Assembly: GCA_003279685.1 (NCBI GenBank)
Contig: QCHA01000002.1
Location: 16,303-80,302 of the forward strand
Direction: 5' to 3'
From: Pelagibacteraceae bacterium AG-390-L03
GTDB taxonomy: Bacteria > Pseudomonadota > Alphaproteobacteria > Pelagibacterales > Pelagibacteraceae
DNA length: 64,000 bases
Within the stretch, counting starts at the first letter, position 1; every line of letters starts with the position of its first letter. Below the pieces are notes generated by a model, which worked only from the letters and a program-made list of their open reading frames with translations, made no database searches and was not told where the DNA came from. A program made the translations under genes and the position numbers. Positions 16,004 to 40,179 of the stretch are shown here, piece after piece.

Positions 16004-17206
16004 ATGAAAATAACTAAAATGATCTATGTTATTATGTTTTCTTCACTTCTTGGAATATTTAGCACAGCAAATTCAGGTGAATTGTGCACAGAGTGTCTAA
16101 AAAAAGTTCCACAAGAAATGAGAGACTATGTTTATAACATGGACTTTATGGATAAAGACCAACCTTTAGGACCTGCGGTAATGAAAGGATGGAAAAGTCC
16201 TAGAAAACCACCGTGGACTATTGGTTACGCTAGTACGTATGCTGGAAACACTTGGAGAAAAGGTGCAATGGAAAGATTAATGGAAGTTGTATATCCTAAG
16301 TGGAAAGCACTAGGAATGGTTGATGAGATTGTAATTACTCAATCAAACTTAGATGACTCATTACAAATTCAGCAAATGAGACAAATGATAGATGGGGGTA
16401 AAGTTGATGCAATTATTATATGTTGCTCTAATATAACTGCTCTTAACACTACTATTAAGTATGGTTGGGAAAAAGGTATACCTACATTATCATTTACAGG
16501 CTTTACAACATCTCCGTATTCAATCAACACATCTGTTAATTACAGATTAGTTGGTTACTATGTAGGTGCATGGATGGCTGAGCTTATTGGAGAAAAAGGT
16601 AATGTTATAGTTATCGAAGGAATACCAGGTTATTCTGCTTCAGACCAACAAAACAAAGGGGTACTAGCTGCGTTGTCAGAATTCCCTGATGTAAACGTTG
16701 TTGGACAACTAGCACATAACTGGACTTCGCAAGTTGCTCAAAAAGAACTGTCACAATGGTTATCAACAAATACAAAAAAAGTTGATGGTATTGCTGTTCA
16801 ATCTTCAGGAGAAACTGGAACTTTGCAGGCCCTACTTCAGTCTGGACTTGATCCAATTCCACCAATTGCATTAGGAGGAGAACTTGGTGCATTATGTTAT
16901 TGGAGACAAAACCCAGGATATATTGATGAAGCAATATATGCATGGCCTCCGGGAGATGAAGTTGAGCTAGGTATGGATGTAATGATTAGAACTTTGCAAG
17001 GTCAAAGTCCTATGATTCAGTCTATATTAGTTGGTCCAGCTACGAAAAATTTCGATGAAATCAGTGAAATCTTAAATGAAGATTGTGATCGAAATTCTAC
17101 TGGTTGGGATAATCCTGGAATGGACAAATGGGCTCCTAAAGAATACGTAGAAGCATTCTTTGAGAATCCAAGCGATCCTACAAAATACGATCCAAAATCT
17201 CACTAA
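16004..17206 (+). CDS. Ribose/sugar-type (Peripla_BP_4-like) ABC substrate-binding protein
   Basis: Signal peptide, AAGGAGGGG RBS, WTIGYASTYAGNTWR, GKVDAIII, GNVIVIEGIPG. Confidence 0.8.
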   Translation: MKITKMIYVIMFSSLLGIFSTANSGELCTECLKKVPQEMRDYVYNMDFMDKDQPLGPAVMKGWKSPRKPPWTIGYASTYAGNTWRKGAMERLMEVVYPKWKALGMVDEIVITQSNLDDSLQIQQMRQMIDGGKVDAIIICCSNITALNTTIKYGWEKGIPTLSFTGFTTSPYSINTSVNYRLVGYYVGAWMAELIGEKGNVIVIEGIPGYSASDQQNKGVLAALSEFPDVNVVGQLAHNWTSQVAQKELSQWLSTNTKKVDGIAVQSSGETGTLQALLQSGLDPIPPIALGGELGALCYWRQNPGYIDEAIYAWPPGDEVELGMDVMIRTLQGQSPMIQSILVGPATKNFDEISEILNEDCDRNSTGWDNPGMDKWAPKEYVEAFFENPSDPTKYDPKSH

Positions 17207-17221
17207 TACTTATAACTAAGT

Positions 17222-18967: not shown

Positions 18968-19476
18968 TGAAAACAGAGAATAAACATAAATATTATAATG
19001 ATGAAGATGAAATAAATTTTGAAAAATTAAATAATTTTAGAAAATTTAATTCTAACCTTAAAAATAATATTCAATCAAATAATCATATTATTAAGTATGC
19101 TAATTCTGATAAAAATTATTTTAATAATATTTTAAAGATTGATCAAAAAGCCACTAAATATAATGAAAATGATAAGGAAAAAGAGATAAACTATTATAGC
19201 CTATCAGACTTTCAAAAATTTGATCAACTAGATAGTTTTTCTGAACATAATAATACAGAAAAAATACAAAAAAAAATTAATCTCAAATCAAACTATTCAT
19301 CTAAAGACCATGAAGAGTTTAATAAAATAATTCCAAAAAGAAATTCAGATCAAGAAAAAAATAACGAACTAAACGAAAAAATTAGAGTAATTGATTACAG
19401 TAAAATAAATGAGAATGAAAAAAAACTTAAAAATAAATTTGGGATTGATAAAATAAAAGTAGTTTATTTTGATTAA
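18964..19476 (+). CDS. Orphan N/K/E-rich protein with four ~33-aa-periodic repeats
   Basis: Start overlaps the ATPase stop (ATGA); Y-x3-D-x3-F-x2-[IL] at aa 11, 45, 78, 111; fills the gap inside a tight operon. Confidence 0.7.
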   Translation: MMKTENKHKYYNDEDEINFEKLNNFRKFNSNLKNNIQSNNHIIKYANSDKNYFNNILKIDQKATKYNENDKEKEINYYSLSDFQKFDQLDSFSEHNNTEKIQKKINLKSNYSSKDHEEFNKIIPKRNSDQEKNNELNEKIRVIDYSKINENEKKLKNKFGIDKIKVVYFD

Positions 19477-19481
19477 AAAAA

Positions 19482-21806: not shown

Positions 21807-23207
21807 ATGAAAAAATCAGCATTTCTTTTTTTTAAAGGACTAGGATTATTATTTGCAATTCTTTGTGGAATAGGAACTGCTTTTCTTGGTTGGTATGATG
21901 GCGCAGATTGGATGAATATTGCTACCTACTCTATTGCTGTAACTGGATTAATATTGTGGGGATGGTACCATTTTTCTGTAAGATGGATTAATGAAGATTT
22001 AAAACAAAATATCTTCACTAAATTTCCTAAAGAAGAAATTATAAAAGACGAAGAAGATGAAGAAAATTTTTTCTTCAAAAATATTAGAGAAAATAAATGG
22101 AAAACAATTGCTTTCCTTGGGGTAATTCTAATCTTTATTTTTGTATCTTTTGTAGCAGATGATTTCTTTTCAGGAAGAACCCTAGTTTCATTTTTGATCT
22201 TTTTAGTATTTGTGATTTTTATGGGTATTATCAGCAGATACATAAAAGGTTCAAAAAGTGTTTTTGTAGGGATCTCTGTGTTGATTGGATTGTTTATTAT
22301 TGGATCTCTAACCATACCTGGTTTCTTAACAACCATGAACATGAAATCAATGTTGGTTTTCGCATCATTTTTAGGACTAGCTACTATTGGTCAGACTTTT
22401 GTTGCACTTTTAGGGGGTTTAGATCTTTCAATTCCATTTGTTATTGGCTCTATGAATGTTGGTTTAATGTCGTTAATTTCAAAAGGAGTTCCACCCTGGT
22501 TAGCATGCATAGTAATATTATTGCTAGGAGCTTTAATTGGATTTGTTAATGGAACTCTGAGTTTTAGGCTTCAGGGACAAGCATTAATTTTAACCTTAGG
22601 TGTCGGATTTTTTGTTAAAGGAGGAGTTCAAATTTTAGTCTCTATGGGAACTTTCTCAGCAGGTACAGTTTTTGGTGTAGTACCAGATTGGATGCAAAAT
22701 TTGGCCTCTATGGGAGGAAAAACTATTGGTCTTCCAATACCTCCTGTGATCATTATTTGGATAGTTGCAAGTATATTAGTTATTGTTGCACTTAGATTAA
22801 CAAAATGGGGAAGGCATTTATATGCTTTAGGTGGAAGTAGATTGTCATCATCAAGACTTTCTATTTCTGAAAGAGGATACTGGGTTGGTGCTTATGTTAT
22901 TAGTGGATTTTTCTCAGCTTTAACTGGAATTCTACTTCTTGGTTGGAGTGGTGGAGGATATGTAGGTGCTGGAGATATTTATTTATTCACAACTATAGCT
23001 GCAGTGGTTATTGGTGGAACTTCATTATTAGGAGGTTCTGGAGGTTATGGGTTAAGTGTTATTGGAGTATTTATATTACAAATAATAACAACTGTATTAA
23101 TTGGATGGGGTTTAAGTTGGGAAGCACAACAATTTATTTTAGGATTACTTATTATTCCAATGGTTGCCCTATACGCAAGATCCCCACATATAAGAAGCCA
23201 GATATAA
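21807..23207 (+). CDS. CUT2 ABC permease with a ~150-aa N-terminal TM extension
   Basis: GGLDLSIP, WGRHLYALGGS, VVIGGTSLLGGSG; extra N-terminal helices and acidic linker. Confidence 0.82.
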   Translation: MKKSAFLFFKGLGLLFAILCGIGTAFLGWYDGADWMNIATYSIAVTGLILWGWYHFSVRWINEDLKQNIFTKFPKEEIIKDEEDEENFFFKNIRENKWKTIAFLGVILIFIFVSFVADDFFSGRTLVSFLIFLVFVIFMGIISRYIKGSKSVFVGISVLIGLFIIGSLTIPGFLTTMNMKSMLVFASFLGLATIGQTFVALLGGLDLSIPFVIGSMNVGLMSLISKGVPPWLACIVILLLGALIGFVNGTLSFRLQGQALILTLGVGFFVKGGVQILVSMGTFSAGTVFGVVPDWMQNLASMGGKTIGLPIPPVIIIWIVASILVIVALRLTKWGRHLYALGGSRLSSSRLSISERGYWVGAYVISGFFSALTGILLLGWSGGGYVGAGDIYLFTTIAAVVIGGTSLLGGSGGYGLSVIGVFILQIITTVLIGWGLSWEAQQFILGLLIIPMVALYARSPHIRSQI

Positions 23208-23219
23208 AGGAGAAGATTT

Positions 23220-23939
23220 ATGATAGAATTAAATTGCGATATGGGTGAAAGTTTTGGGATCTATAAAGCGGGTAATGATGAAGAGATAATGCCATTAATA
23301 GATATAGCAAATGTTGCCTGTGGGTTTCATGCTTCTGATCCTAATCATATGAGAAAAACTGTGGCACTTGCAAAAAAACATGGGGTAAAAGTTGGTGCTC
23401 ACCCTTCTTTTTCTGATCTGCAGGGATTTGGAAGAAGAGAAATAAAAATGCCAAGACAAGATATAAAAAATATGGTTATGTATCAGGTAGGTGCTTTAAA
23501 ATCATTTTTAGATGAACAAGATATGCCTTTGAACCATATCAAACCTCATGGATCATTATATGTTATGGCTGCGAAAGATGAAAATATGGCTAACGCAATT
23601 GCAGATGCTGTTGAAACTTTTAATGTGAGTATTTTTGGAATGGCAAATACTTGTCATGAAAAGGTTTATAAAGATGAAAGAGGTTTAAATTTTATAGCAG
23701 AATTTTATGCTGACCTAGATTATGATAAAGAAGGAAACCTAGTTGTAGCTAAAGGAAAAAATGCTAACTACGATAGTAAAATTGCAGCCAAACGTGTCAT
23801 GCGTGCATTAAAAGAAAAAAAAGTTACCAATACTATTGGTAAAGATATAAATGTTGGTTGTGATACAATTTGCGTTCATTCAGATACACCTAATGCAGTT
23901 GAAATAATTACAGGTATTAAATCAGCTCTTAGTAAATGA
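23220..23939 (+). CDS. pxpA: LamB/YcsF family protein (5-oxoprolinase subunit A-like)
   Basis: LNCDMGESFG, ANVACGFHASDP, GAHPS, HIKPHGSLY, TICVHSDTP. Confidence 0.92.
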   Translation: MIELNCDMGESFGIYKAGNDEEIMPLIDIANVACGFHASDPNHMRKTVALAKKHGVKVGAHPSFSDLQGFGRREIKMPRQDIKNMVMYQVGALKSFLDEQDMPLNHIKPHGSLYVMAAKDENMANAIADAVETFNVSIFGMANTCHEKVYKDERGLNFIAEFYADLDYDKEGNLVVAKGKNANYDSKIAAKRVMRALKEKKVTNTIGKDINVGCDTICVHSDTPNAVEIITGIKSALSK

Positions 23940-26389
23940 AAAGAATTTTAATAGCTAACAGAGGTGAAATAGCTTGTAGAATTATTAAAAGCTGTAAAAA
24001 ACTAGGTATACAGTCAATTGCTGTATATTCAGATATAGACAAAAACAGCAAACACGTTAGAGAAGCTGACGAGTCAATCCACATAGGGGGGTCAAAAGCA
24101 CAAGAAAGTTACCTTTTCGCAGAAAAAATCATTGAGGTTGCTAAAAAACTAAATGCTGATGCTATTCATCCAGGATATGGATTTATGGCCGAAAATGCTG
24201 AATTTGCCCAGAATGTAATAGACTCAGGGATAATTTGGATAGGCCCAAAACCAAGCACTATCATATCAATGGGTAATAAAGATGTAGCAAGAGATTTGGC
24301 TATAAAAAATAACCTTCCTATTTGCCCAGGGTTAAAAGATGAAGATTTAAAAAAAGATGATCTAGAAAATAAATGTAATGAAATTGGTTATCCAATTTTA
24401 ATAAAGGCAAGTGCTGGTGGTGGTGGAATTGGAATGCGAATAGCAAACAATTATGAGGAATTAATTCAATCAATTGAAAAAACTAAAAATTTAGCAAAAA
24501 AAGCATTTGGTAATAGCGATATTTTTTTAGAAAAATTTATTTCAAATGCAAGGCATATAGAAATTCAAGTTTTTGGTCTTGGTGAAAGAAAAGCTTTGCA
24601 TTTCTACGAAAGAGATTGCTCAATACAAAGACGCTTTCAAAAAATTATAGAAGAAAGTCCCGCTCCTGAGATTAAAGACTCAATAATTAATGAGATGGCA
24701 GAAAGTGCAGTAAATTTTGTTACAAATCAAAAATATGAAGGAGCTGGTACAATAGAATTTATATACGACATTGATAATAAAAAATTTTATTTTTTAGAAA
24801 TGAATACTAGAATTCAAGTAGAGCACCCTGTTACAGAGATGATCACAAATTCTGATTTAGTTTCAATGCAAATCCAATTTGCATTAAACCTAGATCTACA
24901 ATCTATAGAACAAAATAAAATTAATAAATCAGGACATGCTATTGAATGTAGATTATATGCTGAAGACCCAGCTAAAAACTTTCTTCCTTCTCCAGGTAAA
25001 ATTACTAAATTAAATCTTCCTAATACTGGTTTTGTAGATATTAGACTTGATATAGGTGTAGATGAAGGAGATGAGATATCTTTTTATTATGATCCAATGA
25101 TTGCAAAAATTATTTCAAAAAGTGAAAATAGAATAGAAAGTATAAATAATATGATTCATTATTTAAGTGAATTAAAAATAGAAGGAATTAATACAAATAA
25201 ATCTTTTTTAATTTCAGTTTTAAAAAATGAGTCTTTTGAAAAAGCAACTTATAATACTAAATTTATAGAAAATAATTTATCTTTATTTACAAAAGAATCA
25301 GAAACTTTAAAAAAAAATATAAGTAAAACTATTAATGAAGAAAATATTGTTCAAAAATATACTGATAAAGATGTTGAGGCTTTTAAAAAAATCACAGCAC
25401 AATCTCCTAATAAAAAACACTCAGACCACTACACTGAAAATGATTTCAAAGCATTTAAGAATATTTTAAATAAAAAAAATGATAATCAAAAAAAAGGTTC
25501 TATTAAAAATATAATAGGAAAAGTATATGAAGAACCATTATTTAAACCAGGAGGTGACAAATATATGGTCATTGAATTTGGTAATCTTATGGATCTAGAA
25601 ATTAACTTTACAGCACAAAACTTAGCTAAAGCTATTCTTGATAATAAAATCAAAGGTATTTATGAAACTGCTCCATGTTTTGCTTCGATGCTTATTCATT
25701 ATAATCCTGATGAAATAAAATTTAATGATTTAAAAAATGAGATGAAGTCACTTATTAAGTCATTAGGTCCAACTGATGATATTGAGATTAATAGTAGAAT
25801 TTTCTCATTTCCCACTGTTTATTTAGATAAATGGACAAAAGAATGTATTGAAGATTATTCAAGCAAAATTGTAGAAAAAACTCCTGATCCTGATTTTATT
25901 GTAGAGCTAAATAAACTTGAAAATACTGAACAATTTGTAAGGGTTCATTCTGGAACTGAATATTGGGTTTCGGCACTAGGTTTTTGGCCAGGTCTTCCAT
26001 TTATGATGCCTTTAGACCCTAGATGTAAATTAACTGCACCAAAATATAATCCACCAAGAACCTGGACCCCAAAAGGTGCCGTAGGAATGGGTGGATCTTC
26101 AACTTCAATATATCCTGATAGATTGCCTGGTGGTTATCAAATTTTTGGAATAATACCTGTTCCTATTTGGGATACTCAGAAAAGTTTTTCTGTATTTGAA
26201 GAAAGTATCTGTCTTTTTAAACCTGGTGACAGAGTAAAATTTGTACCCACAAGCTACGAAGAATTTGATCATGTTTCGAATAAGGTAAAGGACAAATCCT
26301 ATGATTATAATATTATTGACTATCAAAAATTTTCAGTAAAAAATTATAAAAATTGGTTAACAACAATTGATAAAACAAAAAGATTTTAA
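23936..26389 (+). CDS. Biotin carboxylase fused to a carboxyltransferase C/D (PxpB/AHS1-like) domain
   Basis: ANRGEIACR, HPGYGF, GGGGIGM, ERDCSIQRR, EMNTRIQVEHPVTE, YYDPMIAK; ~70-aa linker; then GFWPGLPF, PKYNPPRTWTP, PGGYQIFG. Confidence 0.88.
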   Translation: MKRILIANRGEIACRIIKSCKKLGIQSIAVYSDIDKNSKHVREADESIHIGGSKAQESYLFAEKIIEVAKKLNADAIHPGYGFMAENAEFAQNVIDSGIIWIGPKPSTIISMGNKDVARDLAIKNNLPICPGLKDEDLKKDDLENKCNEIGYPILIKASAGGGGIGMRIANNYEELIQSIEKTKNLAKKAFGNSDIFLEKFISNARHIEIQVFGLGERKALHFYERDCSIQRRFQKIIEESPAPEIKDSIINEMAESAVNFVTNQKYEGAGTIEFIYDIDNKKFYFLEMNTRIQVEHPVTEMITNSDLVSMQIQFALNLDLQSIEQNKINKSGHAIECRLYAEDPAKNFLPSPGKITKLNLPNTGFVDIRLDIGVDEGDEISFYYDPMIAKIISKSENRIESINNMIHYLSELKIEGINTNKSFLISVLKNESFEKATYNTKFIENNLSLFTKESETLKKNISKTINEENIVQKYTDKDVEAFKKITAQSPNKKHSDHYTENDFKAFKNILNKKNDNQKKGSIKNIIGKVYEEPLFKPGGDKYMVIEFGNLMDLEINFTAQNLAKAILDNKIKGIYETAPCFASMLIHYNPDEIKFNDLKNEMKSLIKSLGPTDDIEINSRIFSFPTVYLDKWTKECIEDYSSKIVEKTPDPDFIVELNKLENTEQFVRVHSGTEYWVSALGFWPGLPFMMPLDPRCKLTAPKYNPPRTWTPKGAVGMGGSSTSIYPDRLPGGYQIFGIIPVPIWDTQKSFSVFEESICLFKPGDRVKFVPTSYEEFDHVSNKVKDKSYDYNIIDYQKFSVKNYKNWLTTIDKTKRF

Positions 26390-26394
26390 CTTTT

Positions 26395-27519
26395 ATGGTT
26401 CAGGTAATTAAAAAAGGTTTAGAAACATCAGTCCAAGATTATCCTGGAAGAATTGGAACTTTAAATCAAGGATTTCCAGCCTCAGGTCCAATGGATAGTT
26501 GGTCTTTTAGACTTGCAAATATATTGGTTGGAAATAAGCCTGGTGACGCAGCACTAGAGTGTCAATTTATGGGACCAACTCTTAAATTTATTGATGATAG
26601 AACAATAGCTATTACAGGTGCAGACATGTCTCCAAAAATAGATGGTAAAAGTGTTCCTTTATGGGAGAGTATTGAAGTTAAAGCAAATCAAGTTTTAGAA
26701 TTAGAATTTGCCACAATAGGTGCAAGATCATATATTGCTTTTGCTGGAGGAATTAATAGTGAACCTTGGCTTGGATCGAAATCTACATTTCATAAAGCTG
26801 GGGTAGGCGGAATTGATGGTAAAGCTATTGAAAATAATCAAATTCTGCCACTAGGAAACAATAAAAAAATTCAGTTTAGAAAAATAAAAAAAAGTTCAAT
26901 ACCCGAAATCTCTAAAGATAAAAATTGGTCTATAGAAGTTGTTTTAGGTCCCAACGATGATTGGATAGATGACAAAGGTCATGAGATTTTTTTTAATTCT
27001 AAATGGAAACTTCAAGCAAAAAGTGATCGGACAGGGTATAGATTAGATGGACCTAAACTATCTTTCACTGATAAGGCTACAAACAAAAGCCTTGAAAATG
27101 GTTCGGAACCTTCAAATATTATTGACCAGGGCTATCCTGCAGGAGCAATTAATCTTGCAGGTCAAACCCCAATTATTCTTGTTAATGATGGACCAAGCAT
27201 GGGTGGTTTTATTAACCCGTATACTGTGCCATCAGCAACTTTTTGGAAATTAGGACAAGCTAAACCAGGAGATATTCTCAATTTTATAGAAGTTTCAGTT
27301 GAAAAAGCTCAAACATTAAGAGCTGAACAGTCAATCATTTGTAGCGAAGAAAGCCTTATATCTTTTAATAAGAATGAAACTATCAAAAATGAAAAAAACA
27401 AACAATTAGACCCAATAAAGATAATAGATTTTGATAAAAATAAGACGGAGGAGAAAAAAAGAGTAAAATTGATGGAAAAAAAAGGCATGAAAAATATGAA
27501 AATTCGGTTTTTTAATTAA
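26395..27519 (+). CDS. pxpC: Carboxyltransferase A/B (PxpC/AHS2-like) subunit with a charged C-terminal tail
   Basis: VQDYPGR, SGPMD, GARSYIAFAGG, SDRTGYRL, GQTPIIL, GGF..PYTV. Confidence 0.85.
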   Translation: MVQVIKKGLETSVQDYPGRIGTLNQGFPASGPMDSWSFRLANILVGNKPGDAALECQFMGPTLKFIDDRTIAITGADMSPKIDGKSVPLWESIEVKANQVLELEFATIGARSYIAFAGGINSEPWLGSKSTFHKAGVGGIDGKAIENNQILPLGNNKKIQFRKIKKSSIPEISKDKNWSIEVVLGPNDDWIDDKGHEIFFNSKWKLQAKSDRTGYRLDGPKLSFTDKATNKSLENGSEPSNIIDQGYPAGAINLAGQTPIILVNDGPSMGGFINPYTVPSATFWKLGQAKPGDILNFIEVSVEKAQTLRAEQSIICSEESLISFNKNETIKNEKNKQLDPIKIIDFDKNKTEEKKRVKLMEKKGMKNMKIRFFN

Positions 27520-28008: not shown

Positions 28009-28845
28009 TTAATCGTAATAAAACATTGGAGCTTTTTTCCAATCTAACCATGTAACAGGGTCATGTCCCCAAACTACTTTAGCATTATAATCTTTGGCAA
28101 CTTTTCTTAATTTTTTAACAGAGTCAGCCGCATCTGAAGCAGAAGCAACAAGTCCAGGCAGACATTTATCACACCAATGATCTCCTGTATAACATGCGTC
28201 TCCAGTAAATAACATATGTCCAGTTTTTGGTAAATTTACAAGAACCGATTGATGACCAGGAGTATGTCCAGGAGTAAATATTATTTTAATAACACCATCT
28301 CCAAAGACATCATAAAAATCTGTTTTTCTTCCCTGTAAAAATTTCCATCTTATATTTGGTTTATCAAAATCTGCTCTTACATAAGCTGGTTGTGAAAACC
28401 AGTCTGGATTGAATGCATAATCGTATTCTACTCTTTGTGTAATATGTGTTGCATTAGGAAAGTGACCAATTGCTCCTGAATGATCAAGATGTAAGTGAGT
28501 TTGAATAACATATTTAACATCCTCTGGGTTTGTGTTTACAGATTTAACTACTTCTTTGCACCACTCTGAAGCTTTCATCACAGGATCATAAGCCTCAACA
28601 ACATTTCCCCAATGTTTATGTTTGTCTAGAGCTGCCTCAATTGGCATTCCTCCATCAATAATAACATCTCCTTCAGGATGTTTAATTAAAAACCAAGGTA
28701 CAGGAATTTCATAAGCTTCTTCACCTTGATTCATCTTTATGAATTTCAATTTAGTTTTTATAGAACCAGTTTGAAACATATATAGTTTAATTCCACTATT
28801 AAACTTTGTTGTTTTTTCAAAAAAGTCATCAGAAATATTATTCAT
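28009..28845 (-). CDS. attM: AttM/AiiB-type lactonase (metallo-beta-lactamase fold)
   Basis: HLHLDH, TPGHTPGH, GDACY, GHD; also KMNQG..YEIPVP, PDWF, DFDKP and KKAP features recalled from AttM/BlcC. Confidence 0.85.
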   Translation of the reverse strand: MNNISDDFFEKTTKFNSGIKLYMFQTGSIKTKLKFIKMNQGEEAYEIPVPWFLIKHPEGDVIIDGGMPIEAALDKHKHWGNVVEAYDPVMKASEWCKEVVKSVNTNPEDVKYVIQTHLHLDHSGAIGHFPNATHITQRVEYDYAFNPDWFSQPAYVRADFDKPNIRWKFLQGRKTDFYDVFGDGVIKIIFTPGHTPGHQSVLVNLPKTGHMLFTGDACYTGDHWCDKCLPGLVASASDAADSVKKLRKVAKDYNAKVVWGHDPVTWLDWKKAPMFYYD

Positions 28846-28853
28846 ACTTTATT

Positions 28854-30020
28854 CTACCAGGCTGCCTCATATATGTTAAGAGCGTCATTTTCAGTCAGTT
28901 CTCTTGGGTTATTCACTAATAAACGAGTTTGTTTCATTGCATCTGATGCCATTTTTTTACATGCCTCTTTTGGAATATTTACCTCTCTTAATCTTTGAGG
29001 AAGTCCAATTTTTTGTGACAAACTCTCTAATCGATCAATAAATTCTTTGCATACTGCTTGGCTCCCCTTTTCAGTGTTAATATCTTGGAAAACAAATGGG
29101 GCTAATTCAGCATAATTTTTTGTTGTTTTGCTATCTACACTATTAAATCTTAAAACGTATGGAAGAACTAAAGAGTTTGACAATCCATGAGACACATGAA
29201 AAGTTCCTCCAATCGGATAGGCAAGAGCATGGACTGCTGCAACAGGAGAATTAGCAAATGCTTTCCCAGCTAACATTGCTCCAATTAACATGTTGCCTCT
29301 AGCCTCAATATTCGAACCATCAAATACAGCTTTTTCTATTGAACCCGACAAAAGTTTTAGTGCTTCGATAGCTAACATTTTTGAAATTGGATTATTATTT
29401 TTGTTTGATGAAGTATAACCCTCTATAGCATGAACCATAGCGTCAATTCCTGTAGCTGCTGTTGTGTGTGCTGGTAATCCAATTGTTAAATCTGGATCTA
29501 AAATTGCAATATCAGGTAAAATTATTGGCGAAGAAACTCCTTTCTTTTCTTCATCTCCAACTGTTATGATAGATATAGGAGTTACCTCCGAGCCTGTTCC
29601 AGCTGTAGTCGGTATTAAAATTAATGGTAATCTTGGACCTTTAGCATTAGAAACACCCCAGGCGTCTTCAATATTTTCATTTGAACCTAAAATTAAAGAA
29701 GTTAATTTAGCTACATCCATTGAAGATCCTCCCCCAAATCCAATAACACCTGTAGCATTAATTTTTTTTCCAACTTCTATAGAGTGTAGAAGTGTTTTAA
29801 TTGAAGGATCTGCTTCTACATCTTGAAAAACTTCAACTATTGATGAATATTTATTTAGTTCAGTTAGAGTTGGTTCAGTTAAATTTAAAGACATCAACCC
29901 TTTATCAGTTATAAATAAAACATTTGGTCCCAGTTTTTTTGAAATTTCTTCAACACATATTTTAGACATTCCACTTCCAAATCTAATTCCTGAAGTAGTA
30001 TTAAATGTAAAATTATTCAT
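28854..30020 (-). CDS. Iron-containing alcohol dehydrogenase (AttL/BlcB-like)
   Basis: GGGSSMDVAK, PTTAGTGSEVT, GIDAMVHAIE, AVHALAYP, HGLSN. Confidence 0.88.
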   Translation of the reverse strand: MNNFTFNTTSGIRFGSGMSKICVEEISKKLGPNVLFITDKGLMSLNLTEPTLTELNKYSSIVEVFQDVEADPSIKTLLHSIEVGKKINATGVIGFGGGSSMDVAKLTSLILGSNENIEDAWGVSNAKGPRLPLILIPTTAGTGSEVTPISIITVGDEEKKGVSSPIILPDIAILDPDLTIGLPAHTTAATGIDAMVHAIEGYTSSNKNNNPISKMLAIEALKLLSGSIEKAVFDGSNIEARGNMLIGAMLAGKAFANSPVAAVHALAYPIGGTFHVSHGLSNSLVLPYVLRFNSVDSKTTKNYAELAPFVFQDINTEKGSQAVCKEFIDRLESLSQKIGLPQRLREVNIPKEACKKMASDAMKQTRLLVNNPRELTENDALNIYEAAW

Positions 30021-30031
30021 ACCCCTAATTC

Positions 30032-32098
30032 CTAAACGTAATAAACATAAAATATTATTGAAAATATAGCTAGACCAATTAATATTAAGATCCAGCCATA
30101 GCCAGTTCCTAAATTATCTAAATAATTTTTTTCTCCCGAAACTTCATCTGGATGTTTGTGAAGATCACCAGACTGTATTGGTTTATTTGGTAAAGTTGAT
30201 AAATCCATTTTACTTGCTAAAAACCAAATCAAACCAATTCCAAAAAACCACCATATTAATTGATATCCCCATAATGAAGGTATCTTTAAAATCCAAGATT
30301 CATATCCTGCATTTGGAGCGCCAAAAAAATTATTTCCAAGAACTTGTCCTGGACCTACTCCAAAGAATAACCATATAAGTGCAATAACATATGCAAATGA
30401 TCTTAATTTTGTTCTACTCGGATGAAGGCCCATGTGTTCATTTAAAAAATCATGAAATTTTTGACGATAATCTCTATCATTATCTACTTTTGCTATTGAT
30501 GAAAACGCTGAGACTGAAAAACAAATAAATACATTGAATAATAAGCCCCAAACACCTGAATGAATAGTCAATGGCCATCTTCCCCAAGGCAATCTATTTC
30601 CTGAAATTTGCTGACCAATAGTTTCTGTTAAAATAACAATTATTATTCCAATTATTATACCAGATATAGCGGCTCCTCTTGTTATCCATGGAAACCAGAC
30701 AAGACCAAGTAGAACAATTAAAAATTGAAAAGCTATAGCAATTGAAATACCACTAAAAATAATCATAGCAGGTTTGGCAAATGTAGCTAGATAAAGTGAG
30801 GCCAGAAACATTAACATCATAATTATACGAGCTGCTCTTCGCTCCTTCTCCCAGTTCGAGTTCTTATCTACGTAAGCTTTATAAAAATCTCTAGTAACGA
30901 TGCTACCTGAAGTCATTAAAAGGGCAGCTGCTGTAGATTGAAGTGCAGCAACTAATCCAACAGCCAATAAACCAGTTAACCATAAGGCATGTTTGTCCAT
31001 TAAACCGATAATATGATAAACAATTGATGAATGATCTTTACTTGAAACTTCTGGTAAAAGCTTATTAACGAAAAGACCATTATTATTAATTTCAGCACTA
31101 GCCCCCAATAAAATTGCTCCAATTCCTTGAAAAGTTGTAAATATAAATAATAATAAACCAACAATAACTGCAGATCCCCATATTTGGTAATAAGAAAAAG
31201 CTTTAGGGTGTTTTGCTGTATAGCTTAACATTGAAAATGATGGTGACAGTACTATTCCCATAAAAGAAATTGTAAATGTAAATATCATCATCGCAGTCCA
31301 AGGACCTCCAATTGCTTCATTTTTTCCTAAACCAGCTACCCATTGTATAACACCTGGTAATGCGAAATAACCGTTATAGTCACCTCCTCCATAACCATTT
31401 GTATTTCCCCAAAAACTAATTTTTGTATTTGCTATTTTTGCTAATGATTTACCAAAAGTTTCTATATCTCCTATAAAGGAATAAGTGATTAATCCTAAAA
31501 TAATTATTGTTAAAAAATAAAGCCAAGATTGAACTACACCTACACTAAAAATAGATTTAAAACCTCCTCTTGTTACATAGAATAATACAATGATTGAAAT
31601 TACCCACATTCCTAATTCTCTAGAAACATACTCACCAGTTAATGTATTTATAAGATAACCTGTTGCTCCAAATAAAACAGCAAGTAAGGGTATTGCGAAA
31701 AAAAAAGTTACCAAAACAGAAATAATTCTAATGGTATCACTTTTATAGTAATCATAATACATTTCACCAGGAGTAATGTATCCAAATTTTCTGCTTAGCA
31801 TCCATTGTCTTTTAAAAAAAAATATACTCCCTAAAGGAACAGTTATAGCAATAAAAGCCGTACCAACATATTGAAAGCCATCATGAAAGATAAGGCTGGT
31901 TTGAGAAATTACAGTTAAGCCTGCAAACGTTGCGGCTGTTGCTGCAAAGAAAAAAACCCATGAAGAAATACTTCTATTTGCTAGATAATAATTTTCTGGA
32001 TTATCAGAATTATACCTTGATCCTCTAACGCCCCAAAAAAAACAATAGGCAGCATATAATAATATGAAGATAAATAACCAAACTGATTTTTCAGACAT
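30032..32098 (-). CDS. Sodium:solute symporter family protein (start revised to ATG 32098)
   Basis: YYLANRS, ITPGE, GG..S, AALQST, many TM helices. The ORF-track start at 32230 overlaps the upstream gene and reads as a Lys-rich artefact; MSEKSV at 32098 removes the overlap. Confidence 0.85.
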   Translation of the reverse strand: MSEKSVWLFIFILLYAAYCFFWGVRGSRYNSDNPENYYLANRSISSWVFFFAATAATFAGLTVISQTSLIFHDGFQYVGTAFIAITVPLGSIFFFKRQWMLSRKFGYITPGEMYYDYYKSDTIRIISVLVTFFFAIPLLAVLFGATGYLINTLTGEYVSRELGMWVISIIVLFYVTRGGFKSIFSVGVVQSWLYFLTIIILGLITYSFIGDIETFGKSLAKIANTKISFWGNTNGYGGGDYNGYFALPGVIQWVAGLGKNEAIGGPWTAMMIFTFTISFMGIVLSPSFSMLSYTAKHPKAFSYYQIWGSAVIVGLLLFIFTTFQGIGAILLGASAEINNNGLFVNKLLPEVSSKDHSSIVYHIIGLMDKHALWLTGLLAVGLVAALQSTAAALLMTSGSIVTRDFYKAYVDKNSNWEKERRAARIIMMLMFLASLYLATFAKPAMIIFSGISIAIAFQFLIVLLGLVWFPWITRGAAISGIIIGIIIVILTETIGQQISGNRLPWGRWPLTIHSGVWGLLFNVFICFSVSAFSSIAKVDNDRDYRQKFHDFLNEHMGLHPSRTKLRSFAYVIALIWLFFGVGPGQVLGNNFFGAPNAGYESWILKIPSLWGYQLIWWFFGIGLIWFLASKMDLSTLPNKPIQSGDLHKHPDEVSGEKNYLDNLGTGYGWILILIGLAIFSIIFYVYYV

Positions 32099-32132
32099 AT
32101 GACTTGGCCATATCGTAGATCCTTTTGTTAGA

Positions 32133-32498
32133 TTAAGTGCAGCGTCTAGGTGCTGATTCACCTTTTTCTTTTTTAATTCTTTCAGCTTCTTCTTGGGCTT
32201 CTTTAATCGTTGAGTAAGCCTTATCTTCAAATATTATAAATGGTTTAGCTCTATCAGCATTCAATTGAGCAACACACCATTCTTTGTCAGGTTTAGTGCA
32301 CATCACCATATACGCACCAGGTATAGGTCCATATTTTCTATTATTTAATGTAAAAAGGCTTTTTGCCAGTTCATTCAATTTATCTTCATCCAAATTCCCT
32401 AGAGCATTTTTTTCCAAATTATTTAATGGAGTTTTATTGTCTGAACCTAAAATACTTTTTCCACCTGTTCCTTCAGGTCTAGTAAATTGATTGCTCAT
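32133..32498 (-). CDS. Second dimethylformamidase small-subunit-like protein (partial homolog)
   Basis: YMVMCTKPDKEWCVAQLNADRAKPFIIFEDKAYSTIKEA aligns by eye with KYVTVCKKDFEDYRIGIVTGVRGDPVEILEESFSSEEA of the 34878 protein. Confidence 0.55.
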   Translation of the reverse strand: MSNQFTRPEGTGGKSILGSDNKTPLNNLEKNALGNLDEDKLNELAKSLFTLNNRKYGPIPGAYMVMCTKPDKEWCVAQLNADRAKPFIIFEDKAYSTIKEAQEEAERIKKEKGESAPRRCT

Positions 32499-34855
32499 TA
32501 TGGTAATGGTCCATCTTTTAAAAATCCTCTAATTGTATTTTCTAAAATTTTAGAGACATTATTATTGTAATTATTGTAAGACAAACTTCCACAGAAAGAA
32601 AGTGATCCAGGAGCAAACAAAGCTCCATCGTTTGGTGTTTTGTAATAAATCATATCTGCTCTAACCATAGGATTTTCTGTACCTCCGCCGTAATATCCTC
32701 TTACAGTAAAATGAATCTCTTCATTTACTTGCATCATTAAATTTGTATGGTTTTCTGATCTTGCTAATAGATAAGCATTATGAGGTGTTCCAAATTCTAA
32801 ATCATATCTATCAAGCTCAAGTCCTGCTGCACCTCCACCTACTAAGCCAAAATCTCCTATTACTTCATCTTTTCCAACACCATCAAAAATCCAAGAACAT
32901 TCAGGTCGTTCGCTATCAGGAGACCTTTTGTAATAAGAGCTAACATCAAATCCATATGCTGTAAAAGTTAATCCACATACTTTTGATGGTATTCTCCCTC
33001 GAGCTCTCCACATACCTCCATATTTTCCATCAAAGGCATTATTGTATTCTCCTGGGTTTGCAGTCCATGCTCTAGTACCAGCTTCACCTTTTCTTACTTC
33101 AATGATATTTGGATTGTCAGGGTGATACTCGCTAATCCAATAAAAACCATCTGAACCTAAGTATATCCATCTTCCACCATTAAGCTGATATTGCTCATAA
33201 GCTGCTAACATTTTTTCAGAACTATATTCAGGATGTGATCCTGTTAAAACACATTTGTATCTATTTAACAATTCTACACCTTCTAAATGTAAGTCTTCGT
33301 CTGTAACAACATCAAAATCTAAATTTTTTTCTTCTAACCAATCAGTTAAATGCAAATCTGCATTAAGTTGCCAAAGAGAAGGTGATAACCAATGTCTATA
33401 TTTTGGTCTCATATTCAAAATAGGTCTTAGTCTAGATGCAATTGCAACACCACTTCCATCTGAATGTTGAGAGTAAGTTGATAATCCATATTCTCTATGT
33501 TCATTTAAATACAAATCTGATGCTGACATAACTGGTACTTTTCCAGCTAATAATTGAGCTACAACTGAATTAGTACCAAGGTTATCATTAGAATAGGCTA
33601 TGTAACTATTTGTTGGCAAAACAAATAGAAGGTCCGAAGTAGTTTTTCCTTTAGGAGGTTTGATTACAAATGGAATAAAATCCTCTGTTTCTGCTGAATC
33701 TTCACCATTTATTCTTAATCTTGCTGCATAAACTCCACTTTTAATTTTATCTGGGACTTTATAAACAAAATCTACATCCCATCTTGCATCGTCAATATCG
33801 TCATCGTGAAAATGAATGGCACCGTACTCTTCTGGCTTATGATGAAATACCATTTCATCAGCGGTCCAATTGTATCCTGTCATAGCTCTACATGGTAAAT
33901 TTATAATAAAGCCATTAAGATGATTAGATGTCATATCAACAATTAAAGTTGATGCCATATTTTTAGTGATGTTAGCATGAAAATCCCAAGCTCCTATAAC
34001 TTCAGATCTTAGCTCAGAAGTACAACCGCTAAACCCTCTAGCGAGAGACTCTATCTCTGATTTAGATAATGCTTTTTTACTTAATCTTGGCCTATCTATC
34101 TTTCCGTTATAAGTTAAAGTTTGTTCTGGTAATTCAATGGGACTAAGTGCTTCTTTATAATGTCCACCAAAAATATGTCTTCCAGATCTATCATTTAATG
34201 TGCTTGCTGCCATTAAGAATGGAGCATCATTGGCTCTTGGTTTTAAATTACTAATAGATTCAACATAAGCTGTAGTTTCATCAGCTGGATGAAGAAGTGA
34301 CATACCAAGTCCACCGTTAGTAGGTGTAACACAAGGCTCTTGATATAGTTTTAATTTTCCTGTTTCCGCATCATACGTAGCTGCTACTAAGTACCAAACT
34401 TTTCTCATTAATTTCTTTTCACTAGAAACTGAAGTTGTTTGCCCTCCTCCGTCTCCAATCATTACTGATAAACAACTATTCTCATCTATAAATAACCCAT
34501 AGCCACTTTGAGTTTTATCATTCCATTTTGTTAAGATTCCCTGTTTACCTTTGTCTGGTGTTGTAGGGAAAATATAAGCCTGTAGAGTAAAGCTTGTTGT
34601 ATTTAATCTTTCATCTTGAGGTATTACAATATAGGAGCCTCCATGAATTTTTTGATTTTTTCCTTGATAATTTCTATTACATTCAGCACCTATCTCTTCA
34701 TCTTTATACCCTGGTCCTTCAGGATTTGTGTCTCCATGAATTAATCTAACAATTTGAACCTCATAATTTTCATTTTTCTCTGCATTAACATAAAATTTAA
34801 TCTCTTCACCTGGAAAAGATGTGTACTTATCGCTATATCCTGTAATTCTTAACAT
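32498..34855 (-). CDS. dmfA2: N,N-dimethylformamidase large (beta) subunit family protein
   Basis: ITGYSDKY start, LamG-like N-terminal part, WDFH, NSYIAYSN, GLSTY, GSHPEY, GFYW, GLELDR, VRADM. Confidence 0.88.
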   Translation of the reverse strand: MLRITGYSDKYTSFPGEEIKFYVNAEKNENYEVQIVRLIHGDTNPEGPGYKDEEIGAECNRNYQGKNQKIHGGSYIVIPQDERLNTTSFTLQAYIFPTTPDKGKQGILTKWNDKTQSGYGLFIDENSCLSVMIGDGGGQTTSVSSEKKLMRKVWYLVAATYDAETGKLKLYQEPCVTPTNGGLGMSLLHPADETTAYVESISNLKPRANDAPFLMAASTLNDRSGRHIFGGHYKEALSPIELPEQTLTYNGKIDRPRLSKKALSKSEIESLARGFSGCTSELRSEVIGAWDFHANITKNMASTLIVDMTSNHLNGFIINLPCRAMTGYNWTADEMVFHHKPEEYGAIHFHDDDIDDARWDVDFVYKVPDKIKSGVYAARLRINGEDSAETEDFIPFVIKPPKGKTTSDLLFVLPTNSYIAYSNDNLGTNSVVAQLLAGKVPVMSASDLYLNEHREYGLSTYSQHSDGSGVAIASRLRPILNMRPKYRHWLSPSLWQLNADLHLTDWLEEKNLDFDVVTDEDLHLEGVELLNRYKCVLTGSHPEYSSEKMLAAYEQYQLNGGRWIYLGSDGFYWISEYHPDNPNIIEVRKGEAGTRAWTANPGEYNNAFDGKYGGMWRARGRIPSKVCGLTFTAYGFDVSSYYKRSPDSERPECSWIFDGVGKDEVIGDFGLVGGGAAGLELDRYDLEFGTPHNAYLLARSENHTNLMMQVNEEIHFTVRGYYGGGTENPMVRADMIYYKTPNDGALFAPGSLSFCGSLSYNNYNNNVSKILENTIRGFLKDGPLP

Positions 34856-34877
34856 TTTATATGCCTTTTAATTTTGA

Positions 34878-35303
34878 TCATTGTCCATGTCTTTCTAAAA
34901 GATCTAAAATTCTTTTTAAAAAAATTGCATGTTCGACAGCTTCTTCAGAAGAAAAAGATTCTTCTAAAATTTCAACTGGATCTCCTCTTACTCCTGTAAC
35001 TATTCCAATTCTATAATCTTCAAAATCTTTTTTACATACCGTTACATATTTTTTAATTGCCATTGGTTGTCTTCGAAGTTTATCTAAAACAATTTGAAGT
35101 TCTTTACTATGTTCAACCATTGGCTGACCTTTATGAGGTTGTGGGGCTCGACCAACTGGAGTTGCTCTGTGTTCTTCTATTAATTTGTTTCTCATTTTTT
35201 CATCTCTTAATAGTGGTAATACATATTTTTCAGTAATATAATCATCAGTACTTGTGTGACCAAGATTAAGTTGAACTCCTGTTTTATCTTTTTCCATATC
35301 CAC
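34878..35303 (-). CDS. dmfA1: N,N-dimethylformamidase small (alpha) subunit-like protein
   Basis: LIEEHRATPVG, HSKELQIVLDKLRRQP, EHAIFLKRI; immediately upstream of the large subunit. Confidence 0.75.
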   Translation of the reverse strand: MDMEKDKTGVQLNLGHTSTDDYITEKYVLPLLRDEKMRNKLIEEHRATPVGRAPQPHKGQPMVEHSKELQIVLDKLRRQPMAIKKYVTVCKKDFEDYRIGIVTGVRGDPVEILEESFSSEEAVEHAIFLKRILDLLERHGQ

Positions 35304-35317
35304 TCCTAGTAACTAAA

Positions 35318-36172
35318 TTACTTATTGGTCCTTTCTTGGATTATTTTCAGAGCTTCTATTAAGTAAACTCTAAATAACTCATGATTTTCACTCATTGGAA
35401 AATGCCCTATATCAGGCATTTCAATATAAACTCCGCCTTTAATTTGTCTTGCTGTATTTTCAGTAGCTTCAGGTGGTGTTAAATAATCATAAGTTCCAGT
35501 CATCATTATTACTGGACATTTATGACCATCAATATTCTTCAATTCATTTCTTAAGTCATGATCAACGGAATAAAAATATAAATCACCTTTAAATGCCTCA
35601 GATCCCTGAGTGTAATAATGCCATGTCAACCATCTATCTTTTTCAGGTGATTGAGGTGCCATTAAATCCCACGTACCACTTCCACAAACTTGAGCTGCGT
35701 TTGCATGTGGATGTCTCCACCAATCTAAATAGAAACCTGGCGCATGATCTGCTGCCTCAACTGGAATAACGGCTCTAAATTTATTAGGATGACGAAGGGC
35801 TAATTGCAACGCTACATTTCCTCCAAAAGAAGACCCCATAAAAATAGGATTTTTTAAATCTAATGCTTCACATAATTTAATTATAAAATTACAATAATGT
35901 TCTGCAGTTAGTTTGTATTCTTCTTTCCAAAATTCTTTATTATGTGGAGGGTCTGATTTACCATGTCTAGGTAAGTCATATGCAATTACATTGTAATTTT
36001 TTATAATTTCTTCATCTTCAAGAAGTCCTCTCCATTGATGATTATGACAACCCGCAGTATGTTGACAGATTAATGGTATTCCTTTTCCATTTTGAAGATA
36101 AAAAACTTTATATTCACAATCATCTACTTCAATAGTAACATACCGCCCTACTACACTGTGATGCTTTACCAT
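35318..36172 (-). CDS. Alpha/beta hydrolase
   Basis: YDLPRHGKS, nucleophile elbow GSSFGG, GTYD, GHFP. Confidence 0.85.
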   Translation of the reverse strand: MVKHHSVVGRYVTIEVDDCEYKVFYLQNGKGIPLICQHTAGCHNHQWRGLLEDEEIIKNYNVIAYDLPRHGKSDPPHNKEFWKEEYKLTAEHYCNFIIKLCEALDLKNPIFMGSSFGGNVALQLALRHPNKFRAVIPVEAADHAPGFYLDWWRHPHANAAQVCGSGTWDLMAPQSPEKDRWLTWHYYTQGSEAFKGDLYFYSVDHDLRNELKNIDGHKCPVIMMTGTYDYLTPPEATENTARQIKGGVYIEMPDIGHFPMSENHELFRVYLIEALKIIQERTNK

Positions 36173-36205
36173 TTTTTAAATCCTTTTAATTCAATAAAAT
36201 TCATC

Positions 36206-36595
36206 TTATACGGGAACTCCTGATTTTCTTAATAGTTCAAATTGAACAGTAAAATTTCTTAAATTTTTCATTAAAATTAAATGATTGCCCTCTATTTTTA
36301 AATCTTTTCTAAAACTTGCTGACCAAATACCATGATACATAGGTTTAGGTATTGGCTGACTAAATTCTTTCCAAGTGTTTGCGGAAGCCCTTAAAGCGAA
36401 ATCATATGGGTCTAATGGGCCTGGGTTAGTATTAATATTTTTCACTTTTCCATCATGCATTTCAATAATGACTTTTGCTTTTTCCATATCAAACATAAAT
36501 GAGCATGAATAATATTTTGCCATAGCAGCAATAGTTTCATCACTATTTGTAAGATCTTCGTACTTTTTTGCCCAATTATTCAAATCACTACTCAT
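36206..36595 (-). CDS. SCP2/sterol-carrier-like domain protein
   Basis: 129 aa; IEMHDGKV, DFALRAS..TW, LKIEGN..LM fit an SCP2-like fold; weak. Confidence 0.5.
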   Translation of the reverse strand: MSSDLNNWAKKYEDLTNSDETIAAMAKYYSCSFMFDMEKAKVIIEMHDGKVKNINTNPGPLDPYDFALRASANTWKEFSQPIPKPMYHGIWSASFRKDLKIEGNHLILMKNLRNFTVQFELLRKSGVPV

Positions 36596-36609
36596 ATATC
36601 TTTAACTCT

Positions 36610-38586: not shown

Positions 38587-38600
38587 ATATTATTCCCCCC

Positions 38601-39305
38601 TTAATTCTGATTACCTTTCTTTGTATCTTCTAAAGCTGCGCTATAAATTATCATTCCAAAAATGATTTTATTTAATACGTCAGCTAAATTATAAATTATG
38701 TTTAAACTGTTAATATTTGCTCCACCAGCAAGGTGCTCTATAAAGTATCCAATATGATATATTGAAAAACCTATTGTAATTATTAGTCTATTTGCAAAAA
38801 ATGCCATCTGAACTCGCTCATTATTGCAAGATGCATTTGCTCGTCCAGCATCTCCCATATAAAGCTCTCCAATGATATAAAGCCATCCAACAATACCTAC
38901 TAAGAACCCAAGAGTTACACTCATGTAACCATAAGCCCCTAAAAGTTGTGCAATAACCCAAACTAACGTCCCAACTAGCAATCTCCAGAACATTCCACGC
39001 TTAATATCTGTAACTGACTTAAGCATCACATAGAAAGTGAGTATTGTAAGTGGAAATGTTAACAGCCAATCAATATATCTTAGCGCTGTTGGTGCTTGAC
39101 CATTCAAAACCCACAAATTTTTTGCATAGAAGTAATGAATCGATGACATTAATGCTATAACACCAACTAAATTCATTACTGTTCCCCATTTTGGAGACAG
39201 TCGTCCTCTTTCAAGAAAGAAAAATATTGCTGCACCTATCATCGCTACGGATATTAACCAAAAAGATCCGCCTACTACGTCTTGTGGAAGCAATAATTTG
39301 TTCAT
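38601..39305 (-). CDS. Proteorhodopsin-family paralog with DTT motif (flotillin-associated rhodopsin)
   Basis: Seven TMs, SFW, HY, RYIDWLLTFPLTILT (D79/T83/T90), NLADVLNK (K213); adjacent to flotillin. Confidence 0.92.
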   Translation of the reverse strand: MNKLLLPQDVVGGSFWLISVAMIGAAIFFFLERGRLSPKWGTVMNLVGVIALMSSIHYFYAKNLWVLNGQAPTALRYIDWLLTFPLTILTFYVMLKSVTDIKRGMFWRLLVGTLVWVIAQLLGAYGYMSVTLGFLVGIVGWLYIIGELYMGDAGRANASCNNERVQMAFFANRLIITIGFSIYHIGYFIEHLAGGANINSLNIIYNLADVLNKIIFGMIIYSAALEDTKKGNQN

Positions 39306-39540
39306 AAGCTAAAATTTTACCCTCTCAAACTACATTTAAAGATAAAATGACACGCAAAGCAAATTAAAAGTGTTTATATTTTAAATATATAATTTTTATA
39401 TGTAGATGAAAACTTTTAGTTAAATTATGAAAAATTGAAAAAAAATTTCAAATTCAATCACTGGTAGAATTTTACAGAAAATTTTTAGTTAAATCTTATT
39501 CATTCGATCATAACTTAATTATAGAATATATTGCTTACTT

Positions 39541-40179
39541 ATGCTTTCGAAAGTCATAACTATTTCTCAGCAAAAAGGGGGTACTGGAAAAACTACCCTT
39601 GCTGTTCATCTAGCTATGGCTTTTATAAAATATCATAATTTAAAAGTTGCAATTATTGATACTGATCCTCAAGGAAGTTTGGGTAAATGGTTCATGATAC
39701 GAACAGAAAAGAAAGTTTCAAATGAAAATCTAACTTTCAAAACTGCAAGTTTATGGGGAGCACAATATGAATCAAAAACATTAAAAAATGATCATGATAT
39801 CGTTATCATTGATACCCCACCAAAAATTGAGTCAGATGCAAGACCTTCTATTGAAGCAGCAGATTTAGTTTTAATACCTATGGCTGCTTCACATGTTGAT
39901 TTTTGGGCAACAGGAGCAATAGTTGAAATAGCCAAAAAAGCAAACAAGAAAATTTTAGCACAAATTAATAGATCAAGTCAAAGATCCAAGCTTATAGATA
40001 AAACAAAAAATTTTATAAAAAGTCTAGATCTTGAGTCGACTCAAACAATTATAGGAAATAGACAAATTTATACATCTTCAATGGGCGAAGGTAAAACTGC
40101 AGTAGAAAAACAAAGAAAAGGTAATGCTGTAGATGAGATTAAAAAACTTTCAGAACAAATTTTAAATCAATTAAATTAA
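39541..40179 (+). CDS. parA: Short orphan ParA/MinD-family ATPase
   Basis: Deviant Walker A KGGTGKTT, IDTDPQGS, IIDTPP; 212 aa; no parB nearby. Confidence 0.85.
   Translation: MLSKVITISQQKGGTGKTTLAVHLAMAFIKYHNLKVAIIDTDPQGSLGKWFMIRTEKKVSNENLTFKTASLWGAQYESKTLKNDHDIVIIDTPPKIESDARPSIEAADLVLIPMAASHVDFWATGAIVEIAKKANKKILAQINRSSQRSKLIDKTKNFIKSLDLESTQTIIGNRQIYTSSMGEGKTAVEKQRKGNAVDEIKKLSEQILNQLN

Follow-up and report, generated by a model that had tools for sequence, protein, structure and literature searches.

A Pelagibacterales flotillin-associated rhodopsin with a remodelled retinal pocket, most likely a light-blind partner of flotillin

The rhodopsin gene at positions 38601..39305 (minus strand) of the DNA stretch analysed here is a Pelagibacterales flotillin-associated rhodopsin (FArhodopsin, FAR) of the DTT-T type and, with near certainty, the very copy that has been used as the published reference. 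Its 234-aa product is a seven-helix, opsin-fold protein of the inner membrane which evolves under strong purifying selection, shares one transcript with flotillin and most likely acts as a light-blind partner of the latter. We put the probability that it neither binds retinal nor pumps protons at roughly 0.85.

Results

Identity, fold and phylogenetic position

The stretch, hereafter the window, comprises 64,000 nt of contig C2 of SAG AG-390-L03 (C2:16303-80302). Once this offset was added for comparison with Table S2 of Haro-Moreno et al. (2023; mSystems, PMC10308929), the rhodopsin gene (C2:54903-55607) was found to match AG-390-L03-C2-cds55 (SAR11-cds02) in both protein sequence and coordinates. 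The flotillin gene at C2:52912-54888 is likewise identical in sequence and coordinates to cds54 of the same table, and the neighbours correspond too. The gene is thus the published type example and not new. For FAR, that study described a DTT motif, a threonine at the tuning site and a 23-aa N-terminal deletion, and for the surrounding cluster a 1977-bp flotillin gene, ten co-directional genes and long bordering spacers; the locus fits the description in all these features, with spacers of 235 nt (39306-39540) and 218 nt (15786-16003).

Membership in the FArhodopsin clade had already been proposed in the initial annotation, and this part of it stands, whereas the adjacent flotillin gene, the defining feature of the family, had been overlooked. 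Phylogenetic placement, which had been named as a check, agrees with the assignment: in a maximum-likelihood tree of 68 rhodopsins (52 FAR-like proteins and 16 proteorhodopsins, PRs), the protein groups with the FARs and not with the PRs (SH-aLRT 99). Within the FARs, it falls into a Pelagibacteraceae subclade (support 96), beside the DNI-type (HIMB59-like) FARs, and the PR encoded by the same genome clusters with PRs of same-genus relatives. The protein matches the Pfam family Bac_rhodopsin (PF01036) with 95.8 bits (E 3.5e-27; cut-off 24.6), and its best sequence match in the PDB, over the full length, is 9r21, ‘flotillin-associated rhodopsin’ (PsFAR; E 5e-87), with proteorhodopsins ranking far below. 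The AF2 model consists of seven helices (mean pLDDT 92.2, pTM 0.88), and the top fold matches retrieved with Foldseek are 9r23 and 9r21, the retinal-free cryo-EM structures of PsFAR (TM 0.95).

Compared with PRs, the FARs display specific signature positions, namely, G13, V49, A71, V117, A124, S129, G146, Y149, N157, I178, F188, N199 and L211. Two of these, G146 and Y149, are located on helix E, which has been suggested as a possible flotillin interface (Kovalev et al., 2025; 10.1101/2025.04.29.651185), an overlap too weak to build on. Basal to the FAR clade is P0067 (locus L075, 161-856), a rhodopsin with PR-like residues (S54, DTE-L, V84, G120, W180 and P184); no flotillin gene was found beside it on its 3-kb contig, where a MAPEG gene is located nearby. 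P0067 may represent a retinal-binding intermediate between PR and FAR.

Key residues and the N-terminus

All residues highlighted in the initial annotation, that is, H57, R76, D79, T83, F84, T87, T90, W116, Q120, F180, H184, D209 and K213, were found at the claimed positions in the translated reading frame. The mapping of PR residues onto those of FAR was borne out by a MAFFT alignment with bacteriorhodopsin (BR; sequence checked at 19 key landmark positions), GPR, PsPR, PsFAR and the PR of the same genome. In BR numbering, S54 corresponds to A53, F84 to T90, T87 to L93, T90 to D96, W116 to M118, Q120 to G122, F180 to W182 and H184 to P186. The helix C codons D79..T90 (39036..39071, minus strand) include the DTT motif (D79, T83 and T90), where pumps have DTE, as well as F84 and the tuning site T87; the carboxylate proton donor (GPR E108, BR D96) is missing, with T90 in its place. 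Helix D codons W116..Q120 (38946..38960, minus strand) specify bulky residues at the M and G positions of PR, in the beta-ionone region, and helix F codons F180..H184 (38754..38768, minus strand) cover the counterparts of BR W182 and P186, where the changes are limited to the SAR11 FAR subclade. In helix G (codons D209..K213; 38667..38681, minus strand), both the counterion Asp and the Schiff-base Lys are kept.

The claim that the protein lacks a signal peptide proved correct. An in-frame TAG is located two codons 5' of the ATG at 39305, so that the N-terminus is not extendable, and helix A of the AF2 model starts from residue 10. The N-terminus is ~23 aa shorter than that of the SAR11 PR and carries no leader, in contrast to the 23-aa signal peptide of the genome's own PR. 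This difference is not diagnostic of lost function, because a signal peptide is also lacking in PsPR, which is a working pump, and in PRs of 230 aa. The latter were encountered in the second family of the order (L006-L015), where the proteins begin at helix A, whereas PRs of the same genus carry the 23-aa peptide; hence, the signal peptide is variable among working SAR11 PRs.

Remodelling of the retinal pocket

The canonical retinal pocket (V/T at BR90, M118, G122, W182 and P186) is absent, its positions being occupied by F84, W116, Q120, F180 and H184. F84 aligns to H84 of PsFAR, so that an aromatic residue is present at the polyene-channel position in both, and Q120 aligns to E120. Of the 48 SAR11 genome copies, 38 show the exact pattern with F84, W116, Q120, F180 and H184, the others differing at positions 87 or 79 only, and across the protein-cluster and genome sets the SAR11 FAR subclade is fixed for F84, T87/S87/Q87, T90, W116, A119, Q120, F180 and H184. 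W116, Q120, F180 and H184 are restricted to this subclade: W180 and P184 are still present in FARs of the HIMB59 and Pseudothioglobus types, and all other FARs sampled retain W and P at these two positions. A crude estimate, obtained by summing standard residue volumes over 25 pocket-lining positions and thus distinct from a cavity volume on the AF2 model, assigns to the SAR11 FAR about 204 A^3 more side-chain volume than to the genome's own PR; the same crude sum over 25 positions yields +49 A^3 for the retinal-free PsFAR relative to PsPR.

Published experiments bear directly on the consequences of such changes. PsFAR is retinal-free by cryo-EM, with H84 positioned in the polyene channel and E120 in the beta-ionone region, and binding of retinal is regained in the H84V/E120G double mutant alone (Kovalev et al., 2025; 10.1101/2025.04.29.651185). 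SAR11 DTT-T rhodopsins expressed in Escherichia coli produced no pigment and no pH change, even with a grafted PR signal peptide, and a working PR lost its pumping activity once its DTE-Q had been changed to DTT-T (Olson et al., 2018; ISME J, PMC5864233), although these authors conceded that misfolding in E. coli could be the cause of the negative result. The proteins concerned are nearly identical to the one analysed here, and the experiments are largely those that the initial annotation had proposed; its suggestion was not refuted by them. Together with the PsFAR structures and the placement in the FAR clade, they support its view that the protein is not a standard proton pump and possibly binds no retinal.

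The AG-390-L03 genome (1.35 Mb, 93% complete) encodes a second rhodopsin, at C1:98898-99545, which is 255 aa long and has a signal peptide and the DTE-Q signature; the DTE motif with Q identifies this PR on contig C1 as the blue-absorbing pump type. The window contains no blh or crt genes, as had been stated: the only Blh (PF15461) and CrtB (PF00494) matches of the genome are located on contig C1. With blh and crtB present there, the genome is still able to make retinal.

Flotillin and the neighbouring genes

FAR is followed, after a 14-nt spacer (38587..38600, minus strand) which is crossed by RNA contigs and for which no terminator was predicted, by the sole flotillin gene of the genome (36610..38586, minus strand; 658 aa, 1977 bp, Flot and Band_7 domains). 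The C-run of this spacer often differs in length by 1 nt, at 38595, in environmental RNA contigs. Flotillin is encoded directly downstream of the rhodopsin, on the same strand, in 59/59 related loci of GTDB species genomes. Next come a 129-aa SCP2-like protein (36206..36595, minus strand), annotated as SCP2 by InterPro in Table S2 (PMC10308929) with a weak Pfam SCP2 match of 16 bits, under the cut-off of 21.3, and a 284-aa alpha/beta hydrolase (35318..36172, minus strand). The order FAR, flotillin, SCP2-like protein and alpha/beta hydrolase recurs in 53-54 of the 59 loci, that is, in every one with enough downstream sequence, and these four genes appear to form the core of the cluster. The remainder of the ten co-directional genes (28009..35303, minus strand) encodes a 141-aa protein, a DMFase-like enzyme, a 121-aa protein, an SSF symporter, an Fe-ADH and a metallo-beta-lactamase-fold protein. 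The convergent half of the published cluster (16004..27519, plus strand), which includes genes for an ABC importer, PxpA and biotin carboxylase/carboxyltransferase, is preceded by the 218-nt spacer (15786-16003).

The two small, cytoplasmic proteins of the core are considerably better conserved than FAR and flotillin. Distant Alpha- and Gammaproteobacteria (loci L064-L072) share 77-87% identity with SAR11 in the SCP2-like protein and the hydrolase, compared with 60-70% in FAR and 54-64% in flotillin. When MAGs of Rhizobiaceae, Hyphomicrobiales, Rhodobiaceae, Chromatiales and Poriferihabitaceae are compared with SAR11, the corresponding values are 80-84% for the SCP2-like protein, 86-87% for the hydrolase, 60-63% for FAR and 54-57% for flotillin. 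As judged from these identities, the constraint on the SCP2-like protein and the hydrolase is exceptionally strong. Searches of the PDB and NCBIfam for the function of the two proteins yielded no specific match: for the hydrolase they returned only generic alpha/beta-fold enzymes, far under the cut-offs, and no sequence relative of the SCP2-like protein was found in the PDB.

On the other side of FAR, beyond the 235-nt upstream spacer (39306..39540; the ‘long spacer’ of the published cluster), there is a divergent, orphan gene for a ParA-family ATPase (39541..40179, plus strand; SAR11-cds01 of the published cluster), which scores 185.7 bits, above the NCBIfam ParA_partition cut-off, and has no adjoining ParB. 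It is located divergently upstream of FAR in 47 SAR11 loci. ParA-like ATPases place other membrane or cytoplasmic cargo, and it is conceivable that this one helps to position the flotillin domain.

Distribution and carriers

An intact FAR open reading frame is present in about 50 Pelagibacteraceae species genomes, and FAR was absent from all 60 related species representatives, in agreement with the published accessory status of the cluster. In a search for the boundaries of the island, the flanking ParA-like and aldolase genes were sought in 20 FAR-less relatives. The ParA-like gene was found in none of the 20 and the aldolase gene was patchy, which indicates that the flexible region extends beyond the cluster and leaves no clean empty site.

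Haro-Moreno et al. (2023; PMC10308929) found no cultivated FAR carrier. We identified the FAR-flotillin cluster in the closed genome of a cultured Arctic strain, Candidatus Pelagibacter sp. Uisw_094 (NZ_CP159823.1, 356978-365679), where FAR is 94% and flotillin 90% identical to the proteins analysed here and the SCP2-like, hydrolase and ParA-like genes are present as well. The literature searched on Uisw strains contained no mention of a rhodopsin or flotillin.

FAR-flotillin modules of the DTL type, with H84/E120, were also observed in large genomes (L068-L072), for example, on a 5.25-Mb Rhodobiaceae chromosome and a 1.9-Mb Rhizobiaceae contig, and FAR-flotillin is therefore not confined to streamlined plankton. 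Two further loci are atypical: in RIS_SAG_27, the FAR frame is broken after about 170 residues, by a frameshift or an assembly error, and a 1.8-kb contig binned as Flavobacteriaceae carries a SAR11-type FAR of 94% identity, most likely through a binning error.

FAR abundance is highest in the lower photic zone (Haro-Moreno et al., 2023; PMC10308929), and DTT-T genes at Station ALOHA reach their maximum at 200-1000 m (Olson et al., 2018; PMC5864233).

Selection and transcription

Against 37 SAR11 orthologues, the median pairwise dN/dS of FAR is 0.03, and that of flotillin is 0.07; the 90%-identity protein cluster nearest to FAR counts 2081 member sequences. Both genes are covered by contigs of four marine metatranscriptome runs, such contigs being a weak measure of transcription, and the junction between them is spanned by RNA contigs from two studies (38315-38810 and 38432-38723). 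In the upstream spacer, positions 39406-39536 have no RNA coverage, and at 39311-39326 several contigs stop, after which adapter sequence follows. These ends precede the FAR start codon by 6-21 nt and, together with the zero depth beyond, suggest a very short 5' leader. The coverage fits a single transcript that runs from shortly upstream of FAR into flotillin, in line with the cotranscription of the two genes reported previously (Haro-Moreno et al., 2023; PMC10308929). Given its low dN/dS and this coverage, the FAR reading frame is not a product of chance. A promoter and terminator scan of 35900-39650 returned 16 promoter-like sites against 16.6 expected; with such sites no commoner than chance, the scan is uninformative in this AT-rich DNA.

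Discussion

How the pocket might be kept free of retinal

FAR most likely neither binds retinal nor pumps protons. Thr stands in for the donor Glu, the polyene and beta-ionone space is filled by F84, W116 and Q120, and H184 replaces the helix-F proline. The retained residues, K213, D79, D209, R76 and S54, most likely persist as an internal hydrogen-bonded network which holds the fold cofactor-free, as in PsFAR.

The strictly conserved Schiff-base lysine and both counterions would also fit chromophore binding. FAR might bind retinal only in its native setting, within the flotillin microdomain and among SAR11 lipids, where it would sense dim light or pump weakly, in which case the negative results in E. 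coli would be artefacts. Such an explanation draws on the conservation of K213, D79, D209, R76 and H57, on the retinal that the genome can make with the blh and crtB of contig C1, on the abundance peak in the lower photic zone (PMC10308929) and on the misfolding admitted as possible by Olson et al. (PMC5864233). It has to contend, however, with the Thr in place of the donor Glu and the loss of pumping upon conversion of DTE-Q to DTT-T (PMC5864233), with the bulk which F84, W116 and Q120 add exactly at the blocking site of PsFAR, and with the fact that PsFAR is colourless despite normal folding and pentamer formation (10.1101/2025.04.29.651185). Moreover, the lysine is wholly missing from freshwater FARs, and the DTT-T genes at Station ALOHA are at their maximum at 200-1000 m (PMC5864233). 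We consider retinal binding in the native setting to be improbable. Somewhat better placed, but still unlikely, is the possibility that the remodelled pocket (F84, W116, Q120, F180 and H184) accommodates a different ligand of hydrophobic or amphipathic nature, for example, an isoprenoid other than retinal, a fatty acid or a lipid, in which case FAR would be a chemical sensor, a lipid-handling module or a ligand-sensing organizer of the flotillin microdomain instead of an inert scaffold, and its ligand would be supplied or processed by the SCP2-like protein and the alpha/beta hydrolase. The position of these two genes after FAR and flotillin in 53-54 of 59 loci, together with their 77-87% identity where FAR shows 60-70%, is in keeping with this idea, as are the SAR11-specific polar residues Q120 and H184 inside the former pocket and PDB entry 8cnk, by its title a retinal-free proteo-opsin with decanoate. 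By contrast, the cavities of PsFAR are small, fragmented and water-filled, with no ligand reported (10.1101/2025.04.29.651185), and the SCP2 match lies under the Pfam cut-off (16 versus 21.3 bits).

A decaying, functionless duplicate of proteorhodopsin could account for the lost proton donor, the remodelled pocket, the absent signal peptide and the absence of FAR from all 60 related species representatives, but scarcely for a dN/dS of about 0.03, below the 0.07 of flotillin, for reading frames intact in about 50 Pelagibacteraceae species genomes, for a nearest 90%-identity cluster with 2081 members or for transcription in the ocean, and streamlined SAR11 genomes do not retain dead genes; we regard its likelihood as negligible. 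A pseudogene is ruled out by the dN/dS of about 0.03 and the expression in the ocean.

Proposed role and implications

The reading that we favour, a light-blind partner of flotillin, can be extended to a specific role: FAR would work in the dark as the pentameric partner of the flotillin scaffold and organize a membrane microdomain for the proteins of the cluster, a proposal to which we give about even odds. As a pentameric membrane client or nucleator of the scaffold, FAR would act independently of light, and the microdomain formed with flotillin would serve the SCP2-like lipid-binding protein, the alpha/beta hydrolase, the SSF symporter and other cluster enzymes. It is gene linkage and cotranscription that point to such a scaffold role; Kovalev et al. 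(10.1101/2025.04.29.651185) found no structural adaptation indicative of a flotillin interface.

FArhodopsins occur in large numbers in SAR11, a group that outnumbers all other bacteria of the ocean, and provide a natural case of an opsin which keeps the fold and the lysine and has, in all likelihood, given up retinal. The gene described here is a rediscovered reference gene, and our analysis adds nothing on the function of the family. What it contributes are two small additions, namely, a cultured carrier, Uisw_094 (CP159823), and the recognition of two exceptionally conserved neighbour genes. Conservation of the SCP2-like protein and the hydrolase far exceeds that of FAR, which directs experiments to lipid handling.

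Comparison with known systems

Among the closest described relatives are the deep-water SAR11 DTT-T rhodopsins (Olson et al., 2018; PMC5864233), which share with FAR their SAR11 origin, the DTT motif, a threonine as the tuning residue and an N-terminus without signal peptide. They are different alleles, however, and their linkage to flotillin went unnoticed in that study; one of them, the copy of SCGC AAA288-N07, is 95% identical to the protein described here and also has flotillin downstream. PsFAR from Pseudothioglobus (PDB 9R21/9R23), a normally folded, colourless pentamer (Kovalev et al., 2025; 10.1101/2025.04.29.651185), belongs to the same clade and shares the fold (TM 0.95) at 56-57% identity. 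Both proteins possess S54, R76, D79, T83, D209 and K213, an aromatic residue at position 84 and a long side chain at position 120, but PsFAR combines H84/E120/M90/F57 with the retained M116, W180 and P184, whereas the SAR11 FAR has F84/Q120/T90/H57 in addition to W116, F180 and H184. The gene clusters differ as well, the SCP2-like and hydrolase genes not being among those listed in Table S2 (PMC10308929) as shared with the Pseudothioglobus cluster.

Blue-absorbing PRs, represented by the PR on contig C1, Med12 BPR (4JQ6) and HOT75 BPR (4KLY), are of the same family and fold as FAR and are 41-43% identical to it, with the H, R, D, T, D and K residues conserved between the two. They bind retinal and pump protons, and they differ from FAR in their DTE motif, their V/M/G/W/P pocket and the absence of an adjoining flotillin; the PRs of the SAR11 Ia type also have the signal peptide that FAR lacks. 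Finally, the lysine-less rhodopsins, that is, the freshwater FARs and Rh-noK, maintain the opsin fold without a retinal function, as is probable for FAR, but have lost the Schiff-base lysine, which the FAR described here retains as K213.
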